In this document: positions 1-37,387 of the stretch, piece by piece
How the letters are laid out: every line of letters begins with the position of its first letter
Position numbering within the stretch: the first letter of the stretch is position 1
Source of the DNA: a marine bacterium AO1-C
Lineage (GTDB): Bacteria; Bacteroidota; Bacteroidia; Cytophagales; Microscillaceae
Length of the DNA: 64,000 bases
NCBI GenBank assembly: GCA_001890965.1
Contig: MLAY01000008.1
Span: 360,341-424,340 of the forward strand
Direction of reading: 5' to 3'
Program-made: the position numbers and the translations under genes
The notes under the pieces: generated by a model
The model's input: the letters and a program-made list of their open reading frames with translations, nothing else
Told to the model about the DNA's origin: nothing
Databases searched by the model: none

Positions 1-2
1 GG

Positions 3-173
3 CAAACCAAAGATGGAAAAGAAAAATTACTGTATCTCAAAAAACATAAAATCACCACTCCAGTCTCCAAACTACGCATCAAGATAAAACAACGCCCCAT
101 TAAAGCAGGTATTGATCCATTGAATATTTTGATGGATAAAAATGTGGAGAATAATGTGATAGGGCTAGAGTAA
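3..173 (+). CDS. possible 3' end of an upstream gene (frame 3: ...KLRIKIKQRPIKAGIDPLNILMDKNVENNVIGLE*)
   Basis: Open frame from the window edge to TAA at 171-173; no recognisable domain in the fragment; followed by a hairpin at 232-276. Confidence 0.2.
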   Translation, partial: QTKDGKEKLLYLKKHKITTPVSKLRIKIKQRPIKAGIDPLNILMDKNVENNVIGLE

Positions 174-590: not shown

Positions 591-1538
591 ATGGCAGAAG
601 ATTTAGATTTTGACATTGACGACAAGGACGAACCAAGAGGTGGTTTGAACGGTCAGACACTTGCTATTGTCGGTCTAGCTTTAGCTCTAGTGGTAAGTAT
701 CATCTTTGCTTATCGCTTCTACAGCAGCAACAAAAAGTTTAAAGCCGTTGACAAAGAACAAAAACAAGCAGTAGACAGCCTCAAAGGGTTGAGCTCTAGC
801 TTGAAAGATTCGGTAGCTAGCAAAACTACCGAGAACGAAGAACTTGTAAAGCGTAAATTTGAGTTGGAAGACAAACTCAATGCCGCTGAAGATCAGCGTG
901 ATTCAGTACAAAAGTTATTGAACAACTCTCGTTACCGTGAGCGTCGCTATCGTTTAGAAGCTGCTCGCCTGAAAAAATTATTAGAAGACTCTGAAGACAA
1001 AGTAGATTCATTGCAAAAAGCGTATGATGAAATCGCTGCTGGTAGTGGTTCTACATTGGCTGAGTATCGCAAGCAAATTGAGCAATTGACTACCGAGCGT
1101 AACAGCCTGGCCAGTCAAAACCAAAGCTTGCAAGCTGAAATCAGTAAATTAAAGGATGATAACAAAAATCCTTTGTTTGCTGAAAGCTTAAGAGTAATAC
1201 CTGGTGAAATTCAAAGAGGTCGTTTTAGCCCTTCTACCCGAGCACGTCGTACTGACCGCCTACAGGTACAGTTCAAACTAACCCGTGCATCGTCACCAGA
1301 AGAAAATATTGTCATTAAGTTGTTTGATGCTACCAATAAGGAGATTCCACTGAAGCCTTCTTATCGTAACAACATTGGTAAGCCAACGCCTACCAACCAA
1401 CAATTCATTGTAGAACCAGATGTAGATGCTAAACGCAAGTTTTCTCGTGGCAACTACTCTATCCGTATGTTCTTAACCAATGTAAACCAAGGCATCAATA
1501 ACCAAAGCATTGGAATTGCTGAGTTTTCTTTGCGTTAA
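591..1538 (+). CDS. membrane-anchored coiled-coil protein, paralog 1 of a tandem family; novel ~110-aa C-terminal domain
   Basis: Acidic N-terminus, one TM (LAIVGLALALVVSIIFAYRFY), long heptad-like coiled coil (LDSVQKLLNNSRYRERRYRLEAARLKKLLE...), C-terminal domain with motifs RGRFSPSTRARRTDR / FSRGNYSIRMFL / IGIAEFSLR shared with the next three genes. Confidence 0.7.
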   Translation: MAEDLDFDIDDKDEPRGGLNGQTLAIVGLALALVVSIIFAYRFYSSNKKFKAVDKEQKQAVDSLKGLSSSLKDSVASKTTENEELVKRKFELEDKLNAAEDQRDSVQKLLNNSRYRERRYRLEAARLKKLLEDSEDKVDSLQKAYDEIAAGSGSTLAEYRKQIEQLTTERNSLASQNQSLQAEISKLKDDNKNPLFAESLRVIPGEIQRGRFSPSTRARRTDRLQVQFKLTRASSPEENIVIKLFDATNKEIPLKPSYRNNIGKPTPTNQQFIVEPDVDAKRKFSRGNYSIRMFLTNVNQGINNQSIGIAEFSLR

Positions 1539-1586
1539 AACTAACCTTTATCGCTCTTGACGTAAGAAAATCTCCACATGATATTG

Positions 1587-1626
1587 CCCATAGAAGTGTG
1601 ACACCCACTTCTATGGGCTTTTTTTG
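1587..1626 (+). terminator. rho-independent terminator (12-bp perfect stem cccatagaagtg/cacttctatggg, 7-nt loop, T8 run)
   Basis: Read directly; 49 bp downstream of paralog 1 stop. Confidence 0.6.
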
Positions 1627-1656
1627 TATTTTTGCAGTGTATCAAACTTATTGTTT

Positions 1657-2514
1657 ATGAAGCATTTATTATTCACTTTGTGGCTATGTAGTACCATTAT
1701 TTGTATTTCAAGTCCCGCGAAGTCGCAAAACAATCCCACATCAAAGAAAAACGATAGCTTAAAAAGCCTACTCTCCTCCTATCAAGATTCTTTAGCATTT
1801 TATAAGTTAGGGGATAAAATGCTCAGAGAAACCAAGCTAAAGCTTGAAGACAAACTTTGGGCAACAGAAAACCAACTTGACTCGGTACAAAAACTATTGA
1901 ATAACGCTCGCTATCGAGAACGTCGTTATCGTACAGAAGCTGCTCGCTTGAAAAATCTACTGGAAGGCTTTGAAAGTAAGGTTGATTCACTACAAAAAGC
2001 ATATGACGAGATTGCCGTGAGCAGTGGAGCTACCCTGGCTGAGTATCGCAAGCAAATAGAACAACTAACTACTGAGCGTAATAATTTGGCCAATAAGGTT
2101 CAGCATTCGTCAAAGCAATCAGTAAAACCAGCAAAAGAAAATGGAATGGCTTTGTTTGCAGTAAACATTCAGGCTACTTCTGGTAAGATATATCAAGGTC
2201 GTTTTAAAACTATTACCCGAGCACTCCTGGCAGATAGGATCAGGGTAATATTCACGCTTACTCGTGCACCATCTTCCAATGAAAAAATTGTAATCAAGCT
2301 ATTTGATAGTAGCAATCAGGAGATAGCTTTGATAAATGATTACCAAAATAAATCAGGAAGCCTCACTGCTACCCAACAGTTGATTATCAAACCTGCTATT
2401 GATGCTCCACAAAAGTTTTCCAGAGGCAACTATTCTATCCGCCTCTTTCTAAGCAATACCAAGCAAGGCATTCAAAATCAGCCGATTGGCATTGGAGAAT
2501 TTTCTTTACATTAA
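1657..2514 (+). CDS. secreted/anchored coiled-coil protein, paralog 2 of tandem family
   Basis: Signal-peptide-like MKHLLFTLWLCSTIICISSPAKSQ (alternative start 1624); coiled coil nearly identical in protein to paralog 1 (LDSVQKLLNNARYRERRYRTEAARLKNLLE...TLAEYRKQIEQLTTERN); same C-terminal domain (FSRGNYSIRLFL...IGIGEFSLH). Confidence 0.7.
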   Translation: MKHLLFTLWLCSTIICISSPAKSQNNPTSKKNDSLKSLLSSYQDSLAFYKLGDKMLRETKLKLEDKLWATENQLDSVQKLLNNARYRERRYRTEAARLKNLLEGFESKVDSLQKAYDEIAVSSGATLAEYRKQIEQLTTERNNLANKVQHSSKQSVKPAKENGMALFAVNIQATSGKIYQGRFKTITRALLADRIRVIFTLTRAPSSNEKIVIKLFDSSNQEIALINDYQNKSGSLTATQQLIIKPAIDAPQKFSRGNYSIRLFLSNTKQGIQNQPIGIGEFSLH

Positions 2515-2584
2515 ACTAATGAAGAGAAACTCTTAAAAATTCCTGTGTACTTTTTATTTAAAATACAACTAACAACTATTCATA

Positions 2585-3406
2585 ATGAAAGGCATCTATC
2601 ACTTGTGGTTTAGTCTGGTAACATTGCTCACATTTCAGGCCTGTACTTCCACTAAAAACATTGCTAAAAAGCCCCAAAAACAAACCCCTAAAGCTTTTTA
2701 TGAAAACATTCCTGTATCCAGTACCAAAACTTATGATCCAACTTATTTTTTGAAGGATATGCCATCTGAATTAATACTTGATCCCCCTAATATCAATCCA
2801 ACTAACCCTATTGAAGCAATTCAGAGTTATCGTCTGAGAGCACAACAATTGCGAAACCTGCTGGACAGTTCGTTGAACGTAGTAGATTCTCTGGAAAAGA
2901 GCTTTGAAGCAATTAGCAAACTAAAGCCTACCTCTCAAGACGAAAATCAAAAAGTAATCAAGGCATTAAAAAACGAACTTGCGGATTTAAAAGGCGAAAA
3001 CCTCATGCTTTCTTTTAAGGTTTCCAAGGCTCAGAGAGCGCATCAAAACGCTTTATTTGCCCTTCAGATGCAGGCTACTCCTGGTAGAATAAAAAGAGAA
3101 AAATATTTTAGTGCTGCTATCAGAGCCAGGAACGTCTCTATGGTAAAGGTCAATATATACCTTACCCGCGCTCTGGAGCCAACTGATGAGGTAGTAATTA
3201 AGTTGATGGATGAAGCCAACAATGAGATCCCCCTACAATCTATCAAGGGTTCTTTTAATCAACCCAATATGCAATTAATGCTCACGCCTGATGCCAATCA
3301 AAGAACCTTTTTTAAGGGAAAATATACCATCTACCTTATTCTCAACAACTCAAAACAAAAAATTCAGGAGCAAACCATTGGTATGACAACTTTTACGTTG
3401 AAATAA
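2585..3406 (+). CDS. lipoprotein, paralog 3 of tandem family
   Basis: Lipobox-like LLTFQAC; shorter coiled coil; C-terminal domain alignable to paralogs 1, 2 and 4 (…KGKYTIYLILNNSKQKIQEQTIGMTTFTLK). Confidence 0.65.
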   Translation: MKGIYHLWFSLVTLLTFQACTSTKNIAKKPQKQTPKAFYENIPVSSTKTYDPTYFLKDMPSELILDPPNINPTNPIEAIQSYRLRAQQLRNLLDSSLNVVDSLEKSFEAISKLKPTSQDENQKVIKALKNELADLKGENLMLSFKVSKAQRAHQNALFALQMQATPGRIKREKYFSAAIRARNVSMVKVNIYLTRALEPTDEVVIKLMDEANNEIPLQSIKGSFNQPNMQLMLTPDANQRTFFKGKYTIYLILNNSKQKIQEQTIGMTTFTLK

Positions 3407-3511
3407 AGGCTGTTAGATTAGCAATCATAGGTATGGTTTAGCTAGTCAAATGTCTAAATATGGCATTAGAACCTTCATCGTTTTTAAGATAGAAAATTCA
3501 CCCAGGACATT

Positions 3512-3553
3512 GCCTATAAAAGGACACGATCTACTTTTATGGGCTTTTTTTTG
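3512..3553 (+). terminator. terminator-like hairpin (11-bp stem gcctataaaag/cttttatgggc incl. one G-U) + T8
   Basis: Read directly; its 3' arm onward repeats the motif tatgggcttttttt-gtatttttg-N-ggtgt-N-tcaaacttat also found at 1610-1648. Confidence 0.45.
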
Positions 3554-3584
3554 TATTTTTGAGGTGTGTCAAACTTATGAATAA

Positions 3585-3628
3585 ATGAAAACCTTCATGT
3601 GGGTATTGGGGAGTTTTCTTTACGTTAA
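3585..3628 (+). pseudogene. relic of a fifth family paralog (start region fused out-of-frame to last ~9 codons ...VGIGEFSLR*)
   Basis: atgaaaacc... start-like segment preceded by the same conserved upstream motif as paralog 2; 3' part gtgggtattggggagttttctttacgttaa translates in another frame to VGIGEFSLR*, matching the C-termini of paralogs 1 and 2. Confidence 0.45.
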
Positions 3629-3641
3629 AATTTAATAAATT

Positions 3642-4244
3642 ATGAAAGATAATAAGTGGTCAATTGTTATAATATCATTGATGCTCCTAATCACTGTTTT
3701 ATATTTTGTAGATCAGTCTTTAGAAAAACAGTCAGACTCAAGTCTACCTCCCCCTCGTAAAGTAATTACATATAAAGACTACCTGCGAGATGTAAAAATT
3801 CCACAACTCTATGAAAAAATTGCACAACACAAAAAAGAAATGCTTCGTTTTGCCAAGCTCAAACAAAAATATCCTGATTCCTTATTTTTGATAAACCTAG
3901 AAGTAGTGCCTGGCGAACTACGTCGTGATCAATTTAGTCCTTCGACTAGAGCCCGCAGAAGTGATCGAGCAAAAATAACAGGTATTCTGAGCAGAAGGTT
4001 AAGCGCTAAAGAAAAGCTCAAAGTTGTATTAACCTGTAATAGCAAGGACGCAAAAAATGAGCAAATAAATTTAATTCAAGAAACCTTTAGAATCTCAGAT
4101 TTAGAGATTGATCTCTTTATCTTCCCAAAAACCAATACACTTCGAAAGTTTATTAGAGGCACATATAATCTACAAATTTGGCGTATCAATACCCAATCAA
4201 ACAACAAGGTATTATGGGCTAATACACAGTTCGAATTAAGATGA
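3642..4244 (+). CDS. membrane-anchored paralog 4 (no coiled coil) of tandem family
   Basis: N-terminal TM (WSIVIISLMLLITVLYFV); C-terminal domain with VVPGELRRDQFSPSTRARRSDR and ...FIRGTYNLQIWRIN...TQFELR matching paralog 1. Confidence 0.65.
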   Translation: MKDNKWSIVIISLMLLITVLYFVDQSLEKQSDSSLPPPRKVITYKDYLRDVKIPQLYEKIAQHKKEMLRFAKLKQKYPDSLFLINLEVVPGELRRDQFSPSTRARRSDRAKITGILSRRLSAKEKLKVVLTCNSKDAKNEQINLIQETFRISDLEIDLFIFPKTNTLRKFIRGTYNLQIWRINTQSNNKVLWANTQFELR

Positions 4245-4436: not shown

Positions 4437-5165
4437 ATTAGCAGACAACCCAGAAGAAGAGGACCTCGTGGAAGGCGAGAAGACCCTCACAAGATCAATG
4501 AGCGCATTAAAGCCCAGGAAATACGATTGGTGGGCGACAATGTAGAACAGGGCATTTATCCTACTCGTAAGGCGTTGGAAATGGCCCGGGAACAGAGTTT
4601 AGATTTGGTAGAAATTTCTCCAAATGCTACTCCTCCTGTATGCAAAATCATTGACTATTCTAAATTTCGTTACGACCAAAAGAAAAAGCAAAAGGAACTT
4701 AAAGCCAAAGCTCAGAAGGTAGTAATGAAGGAAATCCGTTTCGGTCCTAATACCGACGATCACGACTTTAATTTCAAGCTTAACCACGCCAAAAACTTTT
4801 TGGAAGGTGGCGCTAAGCTTAAGGCTTATGTACACTTTGTAGGTCGTACAATTGTTTTTAAAGAACGTGGAGAACAACTTTTATTAAAGTTTGCCCTGGA
4901 ACTGGAGGAATATGGCAAGGTAGAACAAATGCCTAGACTTGAAGGTAAGCGAATGACTCTTTTTATAGCACCAAAAGTTACCAAAAAAGCTATTAAACCT
5001 AAAAAAGATGATCAAGACACTACCAACAAGAGAAAAAACCGTGGTAACAAAAATCAAAAATCAGAGGAAGAAACTAAAGCAGAAACTGACACAGACACTA
5101 AAGTCGAACCTACTGATAAAGCCACCAACGACCAAGAGGCAACCCAAACCGAAGAAAAGAGTTAA
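4437..5165 (+). CDS. infC: translation initiation factor IF-3
   Basis: …[68 protein letters not shown]… is canonical IF-3. The homologous N-terminus extends upstream of the TTG at 4527 to an in-frame ATT at 4437 (TAA at 4416); infC classically uses an AUU start. Lys/Glu/Thr-rich C-terminal extension. Confidence 0.85.
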
Positions 5166-5406: not shown

Positions 5407-5598
5407 ATGAAGGTTAAGAAAAATTCAAGCGCAAAAAAACGCTTTAAGCTTACAGGTACTGGCAAAATCAAAAGAAAAAAAGCCTATAAGAGACACATTC
5501 TTACCAAAAAAGGCACTAAACAAAAGAGACGTTTGGGTCAAACTGGTTTAGTAACTAAAGCCGATGAAAAATTGGTAAAGCAAATGTTGAATCTTTAA
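5407..5598 (+). CDS. rpmI: 50S ribosomal protein L35
   Basis: [35 protein letters not shown]… is typical L35; candidate Bacteroidetes -7 box TATCTTTG at 5343-5350. Confidence 0.9.
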
Positions 5599-5705: not shown

Positions 5706-6050
5706 ATGCCACGTTCAGTAAATGTAGTTGCAGCTCGTCGCCGAAGAAAAAAGATGATGAAAGAGGCCAGAGGTTACTTTGGTCGTCGTAAAAATGTATG
5801 GACGGTTGCAAAAAACGCCATAGAAAAAGGAAGACAATATGCGTATCGTGACCGTAAGGTTAAGAAGCGTAATTTCCGCTCTCTATGGATCCAGCGTATC
5901 AACGCAGGAGCTCGTTTGCACGGGTTGTCTTACTCTCAGTTTATGGGAAAATTGCACGCTGCTAATATTGATTTAAACCGAAAAGTATTGGCTGACTTAG
6001 CTATGAATCACCCAGAAGCTTTCAAAGCAGTGGTTGATAAAGTAAAATAG
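5706..6050 (+). CDS. rplT: 50S ribosomal protein L20
   Basis: [30 protein letters not shown]…; classical infC-rpmI-rplT order. Confidence 0.9.
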
Positions 6051-6144: not shown

Positions 6145-7338
6145 TTAAATCATTGCCCTTAGTTTAATCTGCACCAACTTTACCCGGCCTTTGCGCTTGA
6201 TCTTTAAGGTTACCTCACGATTGGGTATTCCCAGTTGTTTTTTGATCCAGCGTAAATCTTTACTTGTCACCCGCTTACCTTGCACTTCTAAAACATGGTC
6301 TCCCTTTTTTAGCCCAGCCTGTTGAGCAGGTGCACCTGCGATCACCTGGTGAACTTCTAATTGCTGAAAGTTATCAGTAAAGCCGAATAAAATACCTGCA
6401 CAGTTTCTCTCAAAAGCTCTTTGATACGCTTGGTTGGGCTCCCAATACGCACGTCGAGTCTTGTAATTGAAGGTAATATTGAAACGTTTGAGAATACGAT
6501 TGCCCAAAATTCCCCCATTCCGATAAGTCCCCAGTACTCCTCGTCGGGTATTACTAATCGAAACAGGAATGTCTTGAAAAGCATAACCTCCTAAGGTTAA
6601 CTCTGGTAATTTGGCAGCTTCCAGGTACGTCTTGTTAGTAGTAGCTCCCGAAGTATAAAAACGGTATTTCTTATCAAATTTTTTAGCCAATTGGTGAGTC
6701 TTGCTAAAACTGGTAGTGAACCCAACACAGGCACCAGCACCTGTATCTATCAAAAAATCATCCGTGTGTTTTTCACCGTTGGGGAGCTTTATCGTCAGAG
6801 GGCACATAGCCAGCCTTCCCATCATTTTTAACCGCATTCGTTTACCTTTTCCTGCATACTTAAATCCTTCGAAATTAAAGAAACGTAAGAGCTTCTGGTC
6901 ATAATCAATTTGGATAACATAGCGTATCAACAAATCAGCCCCAATAATTCCATCAATCCTCTTCCCCAGTTTATGCTCCAGATGTTTCATTGGAAAGCCA
7001 ATTGCATTGGCTCGCAGCTTAATTTTTCCTACTGATAACCGTAAGCTTGAATAACGAGGTGCTGTGACCATCCCTCCTACTCCGCGAGCACTTAATACTC
7101 CAGTAGATTGAATGTTCAAATCTTTGGCCGTGTTGGGGTTTAGCACTGCCATACCAGCTCCTGTATCAAAAACAAAATTCAGGGGGCGAGAATCATTGAC
7201 TTTCACCTGGAAAAACATGTGTTGATGCTCCATTTCGAAAGGAACCTCAACAATGGGTTGAGAGGCAGCTAACAAGTAGCCTTTGAGAAATGCCACTGAG
7301 CTTATCAGTAATAGCGAAAGGGAAATAAATTTTTTCAT
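6145..7338 (-). CDS. secreted retropepsin-like aspartyl protease with C-terminal PDZ domain
   Basis: Signal peptide; two D-T-G-A motifs (FVFDTGAGMAVLN, FLIDTGAGACVGF) giving a pseudo-dimeric aspartic protease; C-terminal PDZ-like segment (AGAPAQQAGLKKGDHVLEVQGKRV). Confidence 0.65.
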   Translation of the reverse strand: MKKFISLSLLLISSVAFLKGYLLAASQPIVEVPFEMEHQHMFFQVKVNDSRPLNFVFDTGAGMAVLNPNTAKDLNIQSTGVLSARGVGGMVTAPRYSSLRLSVGKIKLRANAIGFPMKHLEHKLGKRIDGIIGADLLIRYVIQIDYDQKLLRFFNFEGFKYAGKGKRMRLKMMGRLAMCPLTIKLPNGEKHTDDFLIDTGAGACVGFTTSFSKTHQLAKKFDKKYRFYTSGATTNKTYLEAAKLPELTLGGYAFQDIPVSISNTRRGVLGTYRNGGILGNRILKRFNITFNYKTRRAYWEPNQAYQRAFERNCAGILFGFTDNFQQLEVHQVIAGAPAQQAGLKKGDHVLEVQGKRVTSKDLRWIKKQLGIPNREVTLKIKRKGRVKLVQIKLRAMI

Positions 7339-7511
7339 GAGGTTATATGATTAATGGCTTTATAGTATAGACTGGATTATTGATCCAAAAAGTTGTTAAA
7401 ACATAAAAAACTTACGAACCCGTTTCTTGCGAACTTTAGCCCTAACATTTCCTTTGTGTCATAAGTTGGTTATTTTGGCTCATAAATTTTGTAAGTAATT
7501 CAACACAATCA

Positions 7512-8402
7512 ATGACTATCAAAATACCTACCCCTCCCCTATTTAGTTTTCAAGAATGTTTATGGTTTCTAGATCGTAACTATGACGATTGCCTCCATGT
7601 AGTCACGCCCAATTCGGTATTGAAGGCCATCGAGCTACAGGGACAAATGGTATTGTTTGAGGTAAAAGAGGAAGAAGATCATTTGCAGATAGAAGTTCTC
7701 AAAGGCCATATAACTGATGAGTACCAATTGGCTCACTATTATATCAAAGATTGGTTCGATGTAGATCGTGACCTACGCCCTTTTTATGATGCCTTGAGTC
7801 AAGATGATGATTTTGCCTTTATGCAAACCAAGTATAACGGTTTACGACTGATGGGTATTGAGAATTTATTTGAGACACTGGGCTGGACTATTATTGGGCA
7901 GCAAATTAACCTCAAGTTTGCTTATACCCTCAAGCGAAGCTTGGTAGAACACTGGGGTAAAAAACTTACGCATCAAGGACAAGCCTATTACATATTTCCT
8001 GAACCGGCCACTATTGCGGCCTTAAAGGTAGAAGATTTAAGAGCACTAAAATTTACAACTCGTAAAGCCGAATATTTAATTGGGGTAGCTCAGCTTTTTG
8101 CTCAAAATCAATTGAGTAAAAGTGGACTTTTGGCTTTGGCAAGCGAAGAAAAAATACTAGCTGAGTTGCTTAAGATCAGAGGCATTGGCAAATGGACGGC
8201 CCATTACGCAATGATGAAATGCCTGCGAACTGCCAATAATATTCCTTATGGAGATACTGGACTCTATACTGCTTTGAATAATCTCAAAAATCTGGGAAAG
8301 CGAGCAACCATAGAAGAAATAGACGCAGTGTACGCCTCATTTGAGGGTTGGAAATCTTATTTGACCATTTATTTGTGGCGAACGTTGAGTGATCAAAAAT
8401 AG
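7512..8402 (+). CDS. DNA-3-methyladenine glycosylase II (AlkA-like, HhH-GPD superfamily)
   Basis: HhH-GPD signature LLKIRGIGKWTAHYAMMKCLRTANNIPYGDTGL. Confidence 0.7.
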   Translation: MTIKIPTPPLFSFQECLWFLDRNYDDCLHVVTPNSVLKAIELQGQMVLFEVKEEEDHLQIEVLKGHITDEYQLAHYYIKDWFDVDRDLRPFYDALSQDDDFAFMQTKYNGLRLMGIENLFETLGWTIIGQQINLKFAYTLKRSLVEHWGKKLTHQGQAYYIFPEPATIAALKVEDLRALKFTTRKAEYLIGVAQLFAQNQLSKSGLLALASEEKILAELLKIRGIGKWTAHYAMMKCLRTANNIPYGDTGLYTALNNLKNLGKRATIEEIDAVYASFEGWKSYLTIYLWRTLSDQK

Positions 8403-8438
8403 AATCAAGGTTGAATCATTTCCAACCTTGATCTTTGG

Positions 8439-9875
8439 TTACTTATTGAACTTTGCCAAGTTTGCATTATAGTACTCTACAAAATATCGATGCATCCAAA
8501 ATACATCAAATTTATAACTGATGGTATTGATATTGACTGGCTTGATCGTGATTAAACCTGAACGATCTAATACTTCACTCACGTTGAAACGTAAGGTTTT
8601 ATGAGCCATTTTTACGGTCAATTCTTCACTCGATGCTACTGAAAACCAACCCGTTTTTTTATTCAGTTCTTCAGATTTGGTATAGTGAGCAGCAACTTTA
8701 GCCAACATTGCATAGTACTCTTTCGAGAACAACCCATTGGCACGAGGTCTACTGTGGGTATCTTGATTACGCCTTAGAGCTAGATCTACGATGTGCTTTC
8801 TCATCTTTTGTTCTTCTACTTTCCAGTTGGTAGGTGCCAATTCATTTACACATATACCTTGAATGTAGTCAAAAACTTTGTCACTGCTTGAGGCATTACT
8901 AAGCGATAACACTAAATATGGGAACTGCTTGAAATACTTTAGTGCCTGTCCAAAGATATCAACTTTTTGACTTTGATCTCTAAGCTTTCGTGTGGCCCAG
9001 TTATCAAACCGTACCTTTAGTTCTGATTTGTTCTTATATATTGGTGTTTGTAAATTCACTACTTTTACCTCACGGAATGAACGTCTGTGGGTATTATTCA
9101 AATGAGGGTAAAAAGCCTCAGGACGGCCAAACACAATAAAACTAATGGATGGCTTGGTAGCAGAACGATAATAGTTTTCCAACTTTCGTAATATTTGCTT
9201 TGATGCCTGGGGGTGTATCTCATCTAAATCATCAATTACCACTATGCGTTCTTTAGAAGCACCAGTAATTTTAAGTAATTGCTCTATGGAGATTTCAAAA
9301 TAGGGCATTTCACTCACTGTCACAGGGTTCTCAGCCACTCCTGGCAAGGTTACCCGCATTTTCAAATCAGGCTTTTGCGACACGTTGATGCCTGTAATTG
9401 GTGTGATAGGTTTCACAAACAGCTTACGCAAACTGATCATCTTCATTTTTTTTCCAAATACCTGTTTAGTTATCCCCAATCCTATCCAAGACTTTCCTGC
9501 ACCTGCTGATGCAGTAACATAGGTAATACTGGCATAAAGAGAATCACGTGTTGCCTTTAACTTTATAGTTTCCAAGCGGCTCTTAAGACGATCATTTACA
9601 TTGAAATAATGCGTCTGATTGTTCAGAAAGCGCGCCTTGCCTGGTGTATGAACAGAATATTTATTGGCTGCGCTCTTTTCTATATTCTTCAATACCTGAA
9701 TTTTAACCTCTGGAGAGCGTTTAAAATTATCTTTTAAATGACCACGAATAGTCAGCAAGCCTACCGCAACTGCCGAAACAGCTACCAAAGTATTTAATAC
9801 TTTCTGGATTTTGCTCGTCTTTTCAGGCTCTTTCTTCTTTCGTGACAGGAGTCTCTTTTTTCTAACCTTGTTCAT
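8439..9875 (-). CDS. membrane-anchored P-loop NTPase of unknown function
   Basis: Basic N-terminus + one TM (VLNTLVAVSAVAVGLLTI); Walker A SAGAGKSW; Walker B IVVIDDLDE; ~250-aa C-terminal region with no motif I recognise. Confidence 0.6.
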   Translation of the reverse strand: MNKVRKKRLLSRKKKEPEKTSKIQKVLNTLVAVSAVAVGLLTIRGHLKDNFKRSPEVKIQVLKNIEKSAANKYSVHTPGKARFLNNQTHYFNVNDRLKSRLETIKLKATRDSLYASITYVTASAGAGKSWIGLGITKQVFGKKMKMISLRKLFVKPITPITGINVSQKPDLKMRVTLPGVAENPVTVSEMPYFEISIEQLLKITGASKERIVVIDDLDEIHPQASKQILRKLENYYRSATKPSISFIVFGRPEAFYPHLNNTHRRSFREVKVVNLQTPIYKNKSELKVRFDNWATRKLRDQSQKVDIFGQALKYFKQFPYLVLSLSNASSSDKVFDYIQGICVNELAPTNWKVEEQKMRKHIVDLALRRNQDTHSRPRANGLFSKEYYAMLAKVAAHYTKSEELNKKTGWFSVASSEELTVKMAHKTLRFNVSEVLDRSGLITIKPVNINTISYKFDVFWMHRYFVEYYNANLAKFNK

Positions 9876-11001: not shown

Positions 11002-11370
11002 ATGACATTACAACTAATCACTATCGAACAAGCCCAGAAAATTGCCAACGAAAGTTTGTCTCAATTGAAAGCCTGGATTGATGATGGCAAAATAGAAACT
11101 TACAACAATCAGATTGTTCTAAGCAGCCTGAAAGCATATTTGCAAAAAAGACTCCTCAAGCAGTTGAAATTAAAGTTTGATGACAAAATCAACAATAATC
11201 CAGAATTTTTATCTAGCTACCAACGAATACGAAAACTTGATGAGATAGCCCCAATGAGTAAAGAAGACCTGATAGATGAGCCATTACCTGGCCCTCCTCA
11301 AGTAGGCATGCATGTTATTTTTATAATCCTGGGAACTTTAGGATTTGTCTTGTACACTATTTTTGGATAA
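11002..11370 (+). CDS. hypothetical tail-anchored membrane protein
   Basis: 122 aa, single C-terminal TM (MHVIFIILGTLGFVLYTIFG). Confidence 0.4.
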   Translation: MTLQLITIEQAQKIANESLSQLKAWIDDGKIETYNNQIVLSSLKAYLQKRLLKQLKLKFDDKINNNPEFLSSYQRIRKLDEIAPMSKEDLIDEPLPGPPQVGMHVIFIILGTLGFVLYTIFG

Positions 11371-11450
11371 ATATACTCTACTTACCCTTACCCATAAAAA
11401 AAGTGCTACCTGTTTCCAGGCAGCACTTTCATTTTATTGAAAGGCTCAAA

Positions 11451-13670
11451 TTATTTTTGAGAACCTTTTTTCTCTTTCATTTCCTTGAATTTAGAAGTCT
11501 TCGCATCTTTTCGTGGGAATGAATTGTTTTTAGTATCAATATCGGCAGTAGCCAATTTAGGATCTAAGGTAAACTGTACTACTTCTTTTTGAGTTACAAA
11601 TACTTTAGATACCTTTTTAGGGCTCATTTTCCAGATTTCAGCGGGAACAGTCACGATTTCGCTTGAACCATCCTTAAACTTCATTCCTACAATGATAGGC
11701 ATCAACAAACCACCCTTGTTTTCAAAGTCTAACTGATAGAAATAGCTCTTAGAGCTCATCACCTCTTTATCCTTCTTGGTAACGCTCAACCCACGTGCCT
11801 TTACACGAGCCATAATTCCATCAATGTATTTTTGATCATAAAACTTAGGCTTAAACACCATACCTGCGGTTGCATTCTTGTTAGCTTCGCTAGGTATACG
11901 GAATAACTTTACGCCTTCAATAGAAATGTCGCAAGGTTCAGTGCTATAGAACCAACCTCTCCAGAACCAATCTAAATCAACTCCAGAAGCATCTTCCATA
12001 GTACGGAAAAAATCAGCTGGTTTTGGGTGTTTAAACATCCATTTTTGAGAATACTCACGGAAAGCATAGTCAAACAACTCAGGACCCATTACTGTCTCAC
12101 GCAAAATGTTCAATGCCGTAGCAGGCTTGCTGTAAGCATTAGGTCCAAAGAAAGGAATAGACTCAGAGTTGGTCATAATTGGCACCATACGCTTAGGATC
12201 TATACGCATATAACGAATGATGTCTTTTGGGAATCCAGAACGAGAAGGGAATCCTTTTTTGTATACATCAGGAGCCCAAGGCTGCTTTTCTACTTCACGC
12301 TCAGTCAAGAACTGCACAAAAGAGTTCAAGCCTTCATCCATCCAGGTCCACTGTCTTTCGTCTGAGTTTACAATCATTGGGAAGAAGTTGTGTCCTACTT
12401 CGTGAATAATTACCCCAAACATACCATTTCTGGTTCTTGGGTTTACTTTGCCATCAGGACCAGGACGTCCGTAGTTGAAGCAAATCATTGGGTATTCCAT
12501 CCCGTTAGAAGCTTCTACCGAAATAGCTACTGGGTAAGGATAGTCAAAAGTATACTTAGAATAAGTTTTTAGTGTAAGGGCAATGATACGGGTAGAGTAT
12601 TTTCCCCAAAGTGGGTTAGCCTCTTTTGGATAGTAAGACATCGCCATTACTTTTTTACCACCTACGCTTACACCCATGGCATCCCAAATGTGCTTACGAG
12701 AACTGGTAAAAGCAAAATCTCTTACATTCTTAGCCTTATAAACCCAGGTCTTGGTCTTTTTAGACTTGGTTTTTTCTTTGGCTTCTGCTTCCTTTTGAGT
12801 AACTATTTCTACTGGGTCTTTTGCATTTTGAGCCTTCTTCCAACGCTTCATTTGCTCTTTGCTCAAAATATCTTTAGGGTTTTGCAACTCACCAGTAGCT
12901 CCTACAATATGATCTGCAGGTACAGTCAATGCCACCTCATAGTCTCCAAAAGTCAAGGCAAACTCACCACGACCTAAAAACTGCTTGTTTTGCCAGCCGT
13001 TTACATCATCGTACACACACATTCTTGGAAACCACTGCGCAATCGCATATACACTGTTACCATCTTTTGGAAAGAACTCATAGCCACCACGGCCACCAAT
13101 CTTCATGCGCTCACGCATCTTGTTTTTCCAATCTAAAGAAAAGGTAAAAGAACCGCCATTGGCTGCAATAGGCTTAGGCAATTCAATGCGCATCATAGTA
13201 CCATTGATGGTTATCTTTAAAGGATTACCACTTTTGTCTTTTACATTGGCAATCTTGTAACCATACTCATCATTGGTAACCGATACCCAACGAAACAAAC
13301 CATTAATGCTTCTTGGGCTATTGCTCAATTTCATCGTAGATATTTTGTAAGCAGTAGCATCTTTAGCAAATCGGTTTTGATCCAATTGCACCCAAAGGTA
13401 ACGCATGGGTAGTGGAGAGTTGTTAAAATAAGTAATGGTTTCAGAACCAGTAATCACATTTGTCTCCTCGTTCAAATTAGCCTTGATTTTATAATCAGCT
13501 TTTTGTTGCCAATATTTAGGGCCAGGAGAGCCATCACCAGTACGATAAACATTGGGGGTAGGTAAAGTTTGACCCAACTGCGCAAATTTAGAACTCACGT
13601 AAGGAGGATCTTGCTGAGCCATTGCGGCCACAGTCACGCAAGAGAACAAGAATAATAGAAGTTTTTTCAT
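11451..13670 (-). CDS. secreted M1-family (gluzincin) metallopeptidase, aminopeptidase N-like
   Basis: Signal peptide; HEVGHNFF then E 18 residues later within WMDEGLNSF (HExxH-X18-E); GMEYP upstream resembling GAMEN; K/E-rich C-terminal tail. Confidence 0.7.
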   Translation of the reverse strand: MKKLLLFLFSCVTVAAMAQQDPPYVSSKFAQLGQTLPTPNVYRTGDGSPGPKYWQQKADYKIKANLNEETNVITGSETITYFNNSPLPMRYLWVQLDQNRFAKDATAYKISTMKLSNSPRSINGLFRWVSVTNDEYGYKIANVKDKSGNPLKITINGTMMRIELPKPIAANGGSFTFSLDWKNKMRERMKIGGRGGYEFFPKDGNSVYAIAQWFPRMCVYDDVNGWQNKQFLGRGEFALTFGDYEVALTVPADHIVGATGELQNPKDILSKEQMKRWKKAQNAKDPVEIVTQKEAEAKEKTKSKKTKTWVYKAKNVRDFAFTSSRKHIWDAMGVSVGGKKVMAMSYYPKEANPLWGKYSTRIIALTLKTYSKYTFDYPYPVAISVEASNGMEYPMICFNYGRPGPDGKVNPRTRNGMFGVIIHEVGHNFFPMIVNSDERQWTWMDEGLNSFVQFLTEREVEKQPWAPDVYKKGFPSRSGFPKDIIRYMRIDPKRMVPIMTNSESIPFFGPNAYSKPATALNILRETVMGPELFDYAFREYSQKWMFKHPKPADFFRTMEDASGVDLDWFWRGWFYSTEPCDISIEGVKLFRIPSEANKNATAGMVFKPKFYDQKYIDGIMARVKARGLSVTKKDKEVMSSKSYFYQLDFENKGGLLMPIIVGMKFKDGSSEIVTVPAEIWKMSPKKVSKVFVTQKEVVQFTLDPKLATADIDTKNNSFPRKDAKTSKFKEMKEKKGSQK

Positions 13671-37196: not shown

Positions 37197-37199
37197 TTG

Positions 37200-37271
37200 T
37201 AGCCCGTAGGGGAATCGAACCCCTGTTTCCAGGATGAAAACCTGGCGTCCTAACCCCTAGACGAACGGGCC
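37200..37271 (-). tRNA. tRNA-Glu (anticodon UUC)
   Basis: Minus-strand sequence GGCCCGTTCGTCTAGGGGTTAGGACGCCAGGTTTTCATCCTGGAAACAGGGGTTCGATTCCCCTACGGGCTA; 7-bp acceptor stem, anticodon stem CCAGG/CCTGG with loop TTTTCAT, T-arm GGGGTTCGATTCCCC; CCA not encoded. Confidence 0.85.
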
Positions 37272-37315
37272 ATAGTAGTACTATGAAAATATTTTATTTT
37301 AAGAAAGAGAAGTGG

Positions 37316-37387
37316 TAGCCCGTAGGGGAATCGAACCCCTGTTTCCAGGATGAAAACCTGGCGTCCTAACCCCTAGACGAACGGGCC
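37316..37387 (-). tRNA. tRNA-Glu (anticodon UUC), identical tandem copy
   Basis: Identical 72-nt sequence 116 bp from the first copy. Confidence 0.85.

Follow-up and report, generated by a model that had tools for sequence, protein, structure and literature searches.

What kind of protein system is encoded by the tandem array of genes directly upstream of infC–rpmI–rplT in the marine bacterium AO1-C, and why has one copy stayed nearly frozen while the others diverged? We addressed this question in a stretch of 64,000 nucleotides (hereafter the window; contig MLAY01000008.1, positions 360,341–424,340) from this member of the Microscillaceae (Bacteroidota, Cytophagales), in which positions 591–4244 on the + strand hold four intact paralogs, g1–g4, and one deleted remnant. 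A sequence-only reading of the window had listed the four genes, and all of them are present as + strand open reading frames (ORFs). We found that they belong to a family of extracytoplasmic envelope proteins built from an anchor, a ~140-residue heptad-periodic helix and a seven-strand immunoglobulin-like (Ig-like) C-terminal sandwich, that g1 is the ancestral housekeeping copy, and that g2–g4 arose by tandem duplication with anchor swapping. The genes and their C-terminal domains are as follows (aa, amino acids; TM, transmembrane).

591–1538, + strand: g1, 315 aa, from the ORF list; NCBI BKI52_24160 (hypothetical protein), the same sequence as database protein P0038
1167–1535, + strand: C-terminal domain of g1, a seven-strand Ig-like beta-sandwich with a net charge of +9
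1657–2514, + strand: g2, 285 aa, signal-peptide paralog with a full stalk; sequence equal to database protein P0004
2146–2511, + strand: C-terminal domain of g2, from the domain alignment
2585–3406, + strand: g3, 273 aa, lipoprotein paralog in which a proline-rich linker and a shorter stalk accompany the domain
3047–3403, + strand: C-terminal domain of g3, from the domain alignment
3642–4244, + strand: g4, 200 aa, short TM-anchored paralog without the long stalk; NCBI BKI52_24175 (hypothetical protein)
3876–4241, + strand: C-terminal domain of g4, from the domain alignment and BLASTP

For g2, the mechanical ORF opens at a TTG codon at 1624; the ATG at 1657 yields a classical signal peptide and is also the start of the 285-aa protein P0004, and g2 was therefore taken as 1657–2514.

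The C-terminal ~120 residues of g1–g4 align with 21 invariant columns, and even the most distant domain pairs remained significant by BLASTP (g1 versus g4, E = 2e-18; g3 versus g4, E = 1e-9). The shared domain proposed earlier is thus homologous in all four genes, with a length nearer to 120 aa than to the ~110 aa first given. Its structure model (predicted local distance difference test, pLDDT, 90.7) is a seven-strand, two-sheet Ig-like sandwich, which the fold-class test assigns to the Ig-like/E-set beta-sandwiches and whose fold neighbors are exclusively Ig-like; in g1 this head is basic (20 K/R versus 11 D/E). Foldseek on the domain returned no match at E <= 1e-3, with template-modeling scores below 0.5 and identities of 5–17%, and hence no specific relative among the structures covered. 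The likeness to Ig-like/E-set domains (GH2 Ig-like domains 7rsk and 5t9a, macroglobulin MG domains, FN3 and NPC2/RhoGDI-type sandwiches) is therefore one of fold class; none of these proteins has the anchor–stalk–domain architecture, and none offers a transferable ligand site.

Hidden Markov models (HMMs) from Pfam-A and NCBIfam at E <= 1 gave nothing credible on the domain and no score reaching a curated cut-off; on the stalks they gave only sub-threshold coiled-coil matches for g1 and g2 and left g3 and g4 essentially blank. PHROGs had no match on the four domains, PADLOC hits were confined to SMC-type coiled-coil noise along the stalks of g1 and g2, and a profile search against PDB sequences recovered generic coiled coils only. 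Precomputed "faint" matches to Pfam PF28532 (DUF8428) are recorded for two family proteins, P0001 and P0036, and not for others, including g1 and g4; a literature search brought up nothing relevant on DUF8428, strain AO1-C or Microscilla coiled-coil/periplasm proteins. These results bear out the earlier remark that the domain could not be placed in a recognised family. It constitutes a small uncharacterised family that merits its own entry, although the architecture and the fold class themselves are familiar.

The four genes had also been described as differing in their anchors (TM, signal peptide, lipobox and TM), and both their sequences and those of relatives confirm this. In g1, a 22-residue acidic tail (MAEDLDFDIDDKDEPRGGLNGQ; 8 D/E versus 2 K/R), nearly invariant among g1 orthologs, is followed by the strongest hydrophobic segment of the protein at residues 23–41 (mean Kyte-Doolittle hydropathy 2.5). 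Overall, g1 consists of this tail (1–22), a TM segment (~23–45), a heptad-periodic helical stalk extending to ~187 and the Ig-like beta-sandwich (195–315). The full-length AlphaFold2 (AF2) model (pLDDT 81) has a disordered tail (1–21), one continuous helix (21–187), a short linker and the beta-sandwich; confidence along the helix dips at a conserved GSGS (residues 150–160), and hydrophobic residues recur along the stalk with a periodicity of 3.5. The N-terminus of g2 shows a signal-peptide junction between MKHLLFTLWLCSTIICISSPA and KSQ, with ..SQA before QS and ..VQA before QR in relatives, and g3 carries a lipobox (..LLTFQAC) that its ortholog keeps as ..SFQAC. An uncleaved hydrophobic segment lies near the N-terminus of g4 at residues 6–24 (Kyte-Doolittle 2.2). 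The statement that g4 has no coiled coil holds as far as the long stalk is concerned, but ~25 helix-prone residues (IPQLYEKIAQHKKEMLRFAKLKQKY) stand between its anchor and the domain.

A stalk motif common to the family, DSxxxLL...R..E...RL...L...DSLQKxY.., shows that the helix does not act as a spacer alone. Most TM-type members have their domain beginning at residue 182–197 despite only ~25–45% domain identity to g1, indicating that stalk length is conserved within the TM class.

To define the family, we searched 1.84 billion cluster representatives exhaustively with HMMER at a cut-off of E <= 1e-3. The search returned 35 matches, and 34 after removal of P0033, a 1440-aa protein with ricin-type repeats whose match (E 2.5e-5 over 27 residues) is a false positive. 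Word-indexed searches were insensitive, with three matches for a 4-sequence domain profile and two for a 29-sequence domain-only profile; for a full-length alignment, coiled-coil words dominated the candidates, which were capped at 8000. All taxon names returned for the family are Microscillaceae or other Cytophagales (Microscilla, Cytophagaceae and Cytophagia among the annotations). The domain is the last element in every member, preceded by stalk and anchor where the N-terminus is intact, and inspection of the family sequences gave ~17 TM anchors, ~9 signal peptides and ~4 lipoboxes. One unusual member, the 725-aa P0032 (L015 6001–8178, GCA_013297825.1), joins a Ser/Thr kinase with Pkinase Pfam matches to a low-complexity Q/N-rich linker, a TM segment, the coiled-coil stalk and the domain; its gene lies in a cluster with a PP2C, two FHA proteins and two more kinases. 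Because paralogs bear cleavable signal peptides or lipoboxes, and because the order in P0032 is kinase–TM–stalk–domain, stalk and head must be extracytoplasmic.

AO1-C encodes at least one further member away from infC. This protein, P0016 (BKI52_39645; see also L026 8001–8936), is a TM-type member of 311 aa with 39% domain identity to g1. At 90% identity it clusters with a protein from a metagenome-assembled genome of the Microscillaceae, which points to a second conserved lineage of the family. The surroundings of P0016/P0047 (between MatE and MFS transporter genes) and of P0028 (beside a cNMP-binding protein) gave no functional lead.

Which copy is the oldest follows from the position of the array, whose downstream neighbors in the window are listed here.

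4437–5165, + strand: infC, encoding IF3, with an ATT start codon (ISRQPRRRG...)
5407–5598, + strand: rpmI, 3′ of infC
5706–6050, + strand: rplT, 3′ of rpmI

ATT is an unusual start codon known from E. coli infC. Related loci were found with a closer 10-sequence alignment that reaches pattern-matching relatives only, so that the taxonomic range may be underestimated. One or more family genes lie directly upstream of infC–rpmI–rplT in 11 distinct loci, that is, in every relative with enough context, and the synteny on which the sequence-only reading had proposed to check the array is thus kept. The opposite flank differs in distant loci (FtsX/MacB_PCD in L012; an RHS-like gene on the other strand in L013), and L012, the most compact relative, has little or no called intergenic space beside infC–rpmI–rplT. 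The site holds four copies in the window, in L001/L021 and in L007/L008/L019, three in L009/L010, two in L006 and in L020, and a single copy in L011, L012, L013, L022 and L023. Divergent relatives, which differ in their other flanks, carry g1 as the sole copy directly upstream of infC–rpmI–rplT, and this marks g1 as the ancestral copy. Absence or pseudogenisation of the paralogs in close relatives, the outcome that the earlier reading had set against itself, is found in part: it applies to g2–g4, whose locus varies from one to four copies and includes a deleted fifth copy at 3470–3630, and g1 alone is universally kept.

Evolutionary rates separate g1 from its paralogs in the same way. Between the window and the L001/L003 lineage, the nonsynonymous divergence (dN) is 0.011 for infC, 0.011 for rplT, 0.031 for g1, 0.097 for an AlkA-like gene, 0.135 for a protease-PDZ gene, 0.355 for g3, 0.40 for g4 and 0.42 for g2. 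The dN of g1 is thus ~3x that of IF3 and L20 and 3–4x below that of ordinary neighboring genes; compared with its L001 ortholog, g1 shows 95% amino acid identity, a synonymous divergence (dS) of 0.92 and a dN/dS ratio (omega) of 0.034. The dN values of g2–g4, in turn, are ~12x that of g1 and 3–4x those of ordinary neighbors.

The duplication that produced g2 is old. The coiled coils of g1 and g2 had been noted as almost identical in protein and different at synonymous positions in DNA, which was taken to mean an old duplication maintained by purifying selection and not a recent gene conversion; the codon-level comparison supports each part of this. In the stalk block (g1 aa 104–171 versus g2 aa 75–142), 59 of 68 amino acids (87%) and 158 of 204 nucleotides are identical, different codons are used at 29 of the 59 identical residues, and the two strings compared earlier, at 915 and 1894, differ at 8 of 36 bases. 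By the Nei-Gojobori method, the proportion of synonymous differences (pS) between g1 and g2 amounts overall to a saturated 0.74. The conserved stalk windows have a pS of 0.57–0.89 and a nonsynonymous counterpart (pN) of 0.07–0.14; elsewhere pN rises to 0.2–0.7.

One relative does show recent conversion. For L001, pS between g1 (7163–8110) and g2 (8233–9063) is 0.16–0.25 over the last ~60 codons versus 0.7–0.9 elsewhere, and the g2 domain nests in the g1 clade with 85% identity. The end of L001 g2 is a recent gene-conversion tract from g1.

The remainder of the array turns over fast. In the domain tree, g1 orthologs form a tight clade, and g3 and g4 of the window each pair with their L001 counterpart as orthologs, at domain identities of 58% for g3 and 45% for g4 (L001 P0003). 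The four-gene array of L007 comprises g1 and three signal-peptide paralogs, with neither a lipoprotein nor a short-TM type; arrays of equal size have therefore been built differently. The g1 proteins of L007 and L009 do not differ, and on both flanks of the array the DNA of the two loci is 98.5–98.9% identical. Between these flanks, L007 has 1.55 kb with two 259-aa genes (11154–12708) and L009 has 0.82 kb within one 312-aa gene (1543–2363), and the two array middles gave no high-identity alignment. The difference is a cassette replacement between near-identical (metagenomic) strains. Unequal crossing-over was considered as the origin of the 312-aa gene of L009 and rejected, as its domain is only 52–58% identical to either middle gene of L007.

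The window itself records a deletion, for which two further features are relevant.

1586–1625, + strand: terminator-like hairpin after g1, with a 13-bp stem (−22.9 kcal/mol) followed by a T7 run
3470–3630, + strand: remnant of a fifth, g2-like paralog, comprising a spacer copy, the g2 5′ leader and a gene end

The spacer between g3 and g4 (3470–3579) is ~80–91% identical to that between g1 and g2 (1543–1652), including the terminator hairpin and the promoter-like TTTTTTTGTATTTTTG block. This block lies 3′ of the g1 hairpin and may serve g2 as a promoter element of the Bacteroidota −7 type. At 3602–3630, the remnant retains the last eight codons of the conserved gene end (GIGEFSLR-stop), and ~0.8 kb of coding interior is deleted. 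The segment 3470–3630 is thus a fifth, g2-like copy that has lost its interior.

What could proteins of this design do? We give roughly even chances to a mechanism in which g1 is an inner-membrane-anchored tether, spacer or adaptor with which the paralogs co-assemble or compete. The g1 protein would sit in the inner membrane with its short acidic tail facing the cytoplasm. Its coiled-coil stalk, roughly 20 nm long (140 residues × 0.15 nm), would project across the periplasm and hold the basic Ig-like head, a predicted binding head, near the peptidoglycan or the outer-membrane side. The place of g1 beside infC–rpmI–rplT suggests that it may be made in step with growth. The paralogs retain the stalk motif in the form DSxQKLL...R..ER...RL...L...DSLQKxY[DE]E, which makes co-assembly or competition with g1 probable, and they would place extra heads at other positions: a soluble one by g2, a lipid-anchored one by g3 and a membrane-proximal one by g4.

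Two known systems offer partial parallels. PorM and GldM are bitopic inner-membrane proteins with a periplasm-spanning part that is helical at its start and closes with Ig-like domains. They resemble the g1-type architecture and occur in the same phylum, Bacteroidota; however, PorM comprises four domains in the periplasm and lacks a single 140-residue helix, and the genes are encoded in porKLMN/gldKLMN rather than beside infC. Braun's lipoprotein Lpp is an analogy of working principle only, in that the length of a coiled coil could determine or sense the distance between the membranes. Lpp is a 58-residue trimeric lipoprotein, covalently linked to peptidoglycan and devoid of a globular head, and there is no homology to g1.

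Several considerations weigh against a tether, spacer or adaptor. The mechanism is proposed on the grounds of architecture. The positive-inside rule is ambiguous for g1, with 2 K/R before the TM segment versus 5 after it, and the basis for its N-in topology lies in the paralogs and the kinase fusion instead of in g1 itself. Given that the AF2 model is a monomer and that its pLDDT dips at the GSGS hinge (150–160), 20 nm is an upper estimate. The position next to infC may be a matter of phylogenetic inertia in a single clade and not of functional coupling; within the window, a weak hairpin and a conserved promoter-like leader stand between g4 and infC. This ATT-start leader of infC, including the promoter-like block AAAAAAACTTGTTTTTTGTAGCTAATTC, is kept between the window and L006 (~3620). 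Finally, since the stalk motif is family-wide, the similarity of g1 and g2 may reflect a common external partner instead of contact between them.

Among the alternatives, a sensor or signaling module fares best, although we regard it as unlikely. Here the head would bind a periplasmic ligand and the stalk would relay the signal to the fused kinase or, through the acidic tail of g1, to a cytoplasmic partner, with secreted paralogs modulating or titrating the ligand. The domain order of P0032 and its PP2C/FHA/kinase cluster are what such a module would look like, the g1 tail is nearly invariant among orthologs as noted above, and several distant TM-type members share an N-terminal aromatic FF motif (NFFQSI, GFFRNI, TFFQDF). 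Yet an output domain is present in only 1 of the 34 family representatives. The tail is ~20 residues long, predicted to be disordered and poorly conserved family-wide (mean column conservation 0.22), and paralogs with a signal peptide or a lipobox have no way of reaching the cytoplasm.

Somewhat less probable still is that turnover is the main feature, with g2–g4 forming a polymorphic envelope set under diversifying selection (through phage or predator interaction, as decoys or in kin recognition between filaments) on a conserved g1 scaffold. Much of the evolutionary evidence fits this idea: the high dN of g2–g4 relative to g1 and to ordinary neighbors, the variation in copy number and in array composition by lineage, the replaced array middle between otherwise near-identical flanks, the deleted fifth copy in the window and the conversion tract in L001. 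Against it, pairwise omega is 0.12–0.15 wherever it is measurable, well below 1, and with dS saturated these values do not demonstrate positive selection on g2–g4; relaxed constraint after duplication accounts for the same rates. In g3, no acidic lipoprotein-export-type motif follows the Cys, no sign of surface exposure was seen for the set, and PADLOC and PHROGs yielded nothing beyond the coiled-coil noise.

We consider a combination of the tether with such a set improbable. It would make the locus an as yet undescribed two-tier envelope system of filamentous gliding Microscillaceae, in which a near-invariant g1 ruler or tether, genetically coupled to infC–rpmI–rplT, is joined by hypervariable secreted, lipidated or short-anchored paralogs. 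These would attach to a stalk or target in common, be exchanged between strains as cassettes and form a polymorphic layer that serves kin recognition or helps to evade phages or predators.

We also weighed whether the array is a divergent member of a known bitopic coiled-coil family (FtsB/FtsL/DivIC, MreC, PorM/GldM or Skp/OmpH), which appears very unlikely. The general architecture of a TM segment, a helix and a beta-rich periplasmic part is shared, and g1 residues 154–190 gave weak matches to DivIC (E 0.003, 17.8 bits) and to FtsB/FtsL (FtsL 9.7 bits). However, these matches cover only the coiled coil and fall below the cut-offs (28.9 bits for PF04977; 42.45 bits for TIGR02209); MreC, GldM/PorM and Skp/OmpH gave no match at E <= 1, the PDB-sequence profile search found generic coiled coils, and the domain fold had no specific match. 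Least credible of all is that the sandwich is a type IX secretion system (T9SS) sorting domain (CTD) and the proteins secreted or surface-attached cargo: although it resembles the CTD (Por_Secre_tail) in size, fold, phylum and its place at the extreme C-terminus, the HMMs Por_Secre_tail (PF18962), TIGR04183 and TIGR04131 gave no match even at E <= 1, about half of the family, including g1 and also g4, has an uncleaved TM anchor that is incompatible with release to the T9SS and so cannot be a substrate, the cargo would be a helix only, and in the kinase fusion the domain remains attached to the inner membrane.

If g1 is indeed a periplasm-spanning tether or ruler, it would represent a lineage-specific solution to envelope spacing in Bacteroidota lacking Lpp. 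Independently of mechanism, conservation near that of ribosomal proteins and a fixed place beside infC mark g1 as a likely important unannotated gene. The array further provides a clean natural case of asymmetric paralog evolution, in which one copy is frozen and others diverge, swap anchors, undergo conversion, or are deleted or replaced as cassettes. The scope is narrow, comprising one bacterial family and 34 cluster representatives and bearing on no question of long standing; clean and unexpected are nonetheless both the pattern of evolution and the linkage of g1 to infC.

In L006, a metagenome contig, g1 appears as two ORFs (..FFFKQKTAYEI.. and ..FFFQAEDGIRD..) because the Illumina adapter CAAGCAGAAGACGGCATACGAGAT is embedded in it at ~1700–1760. 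We discarded this split as an assembly artefact that gives no evidence of pseudogenisation; with the adapter inside the L006 g1, P0001 is a chimeric protein record. On the upstream side of the array, window positions 1–172 are the 3′ end of a membrane/Peptidase_M1 fusion gene. The upstream neighborhood common to the close relatives L001, L007 and L011 consists of a LytTR response regulator, a His_kinase, an ABC ATPase and a ~1210-aa ABC2-membrane/Peptidase_M1 fusion. Elsewhere in the window, two tRNA-Glu(TTC) genes stand in tandem on the − strand at 37199–37387.

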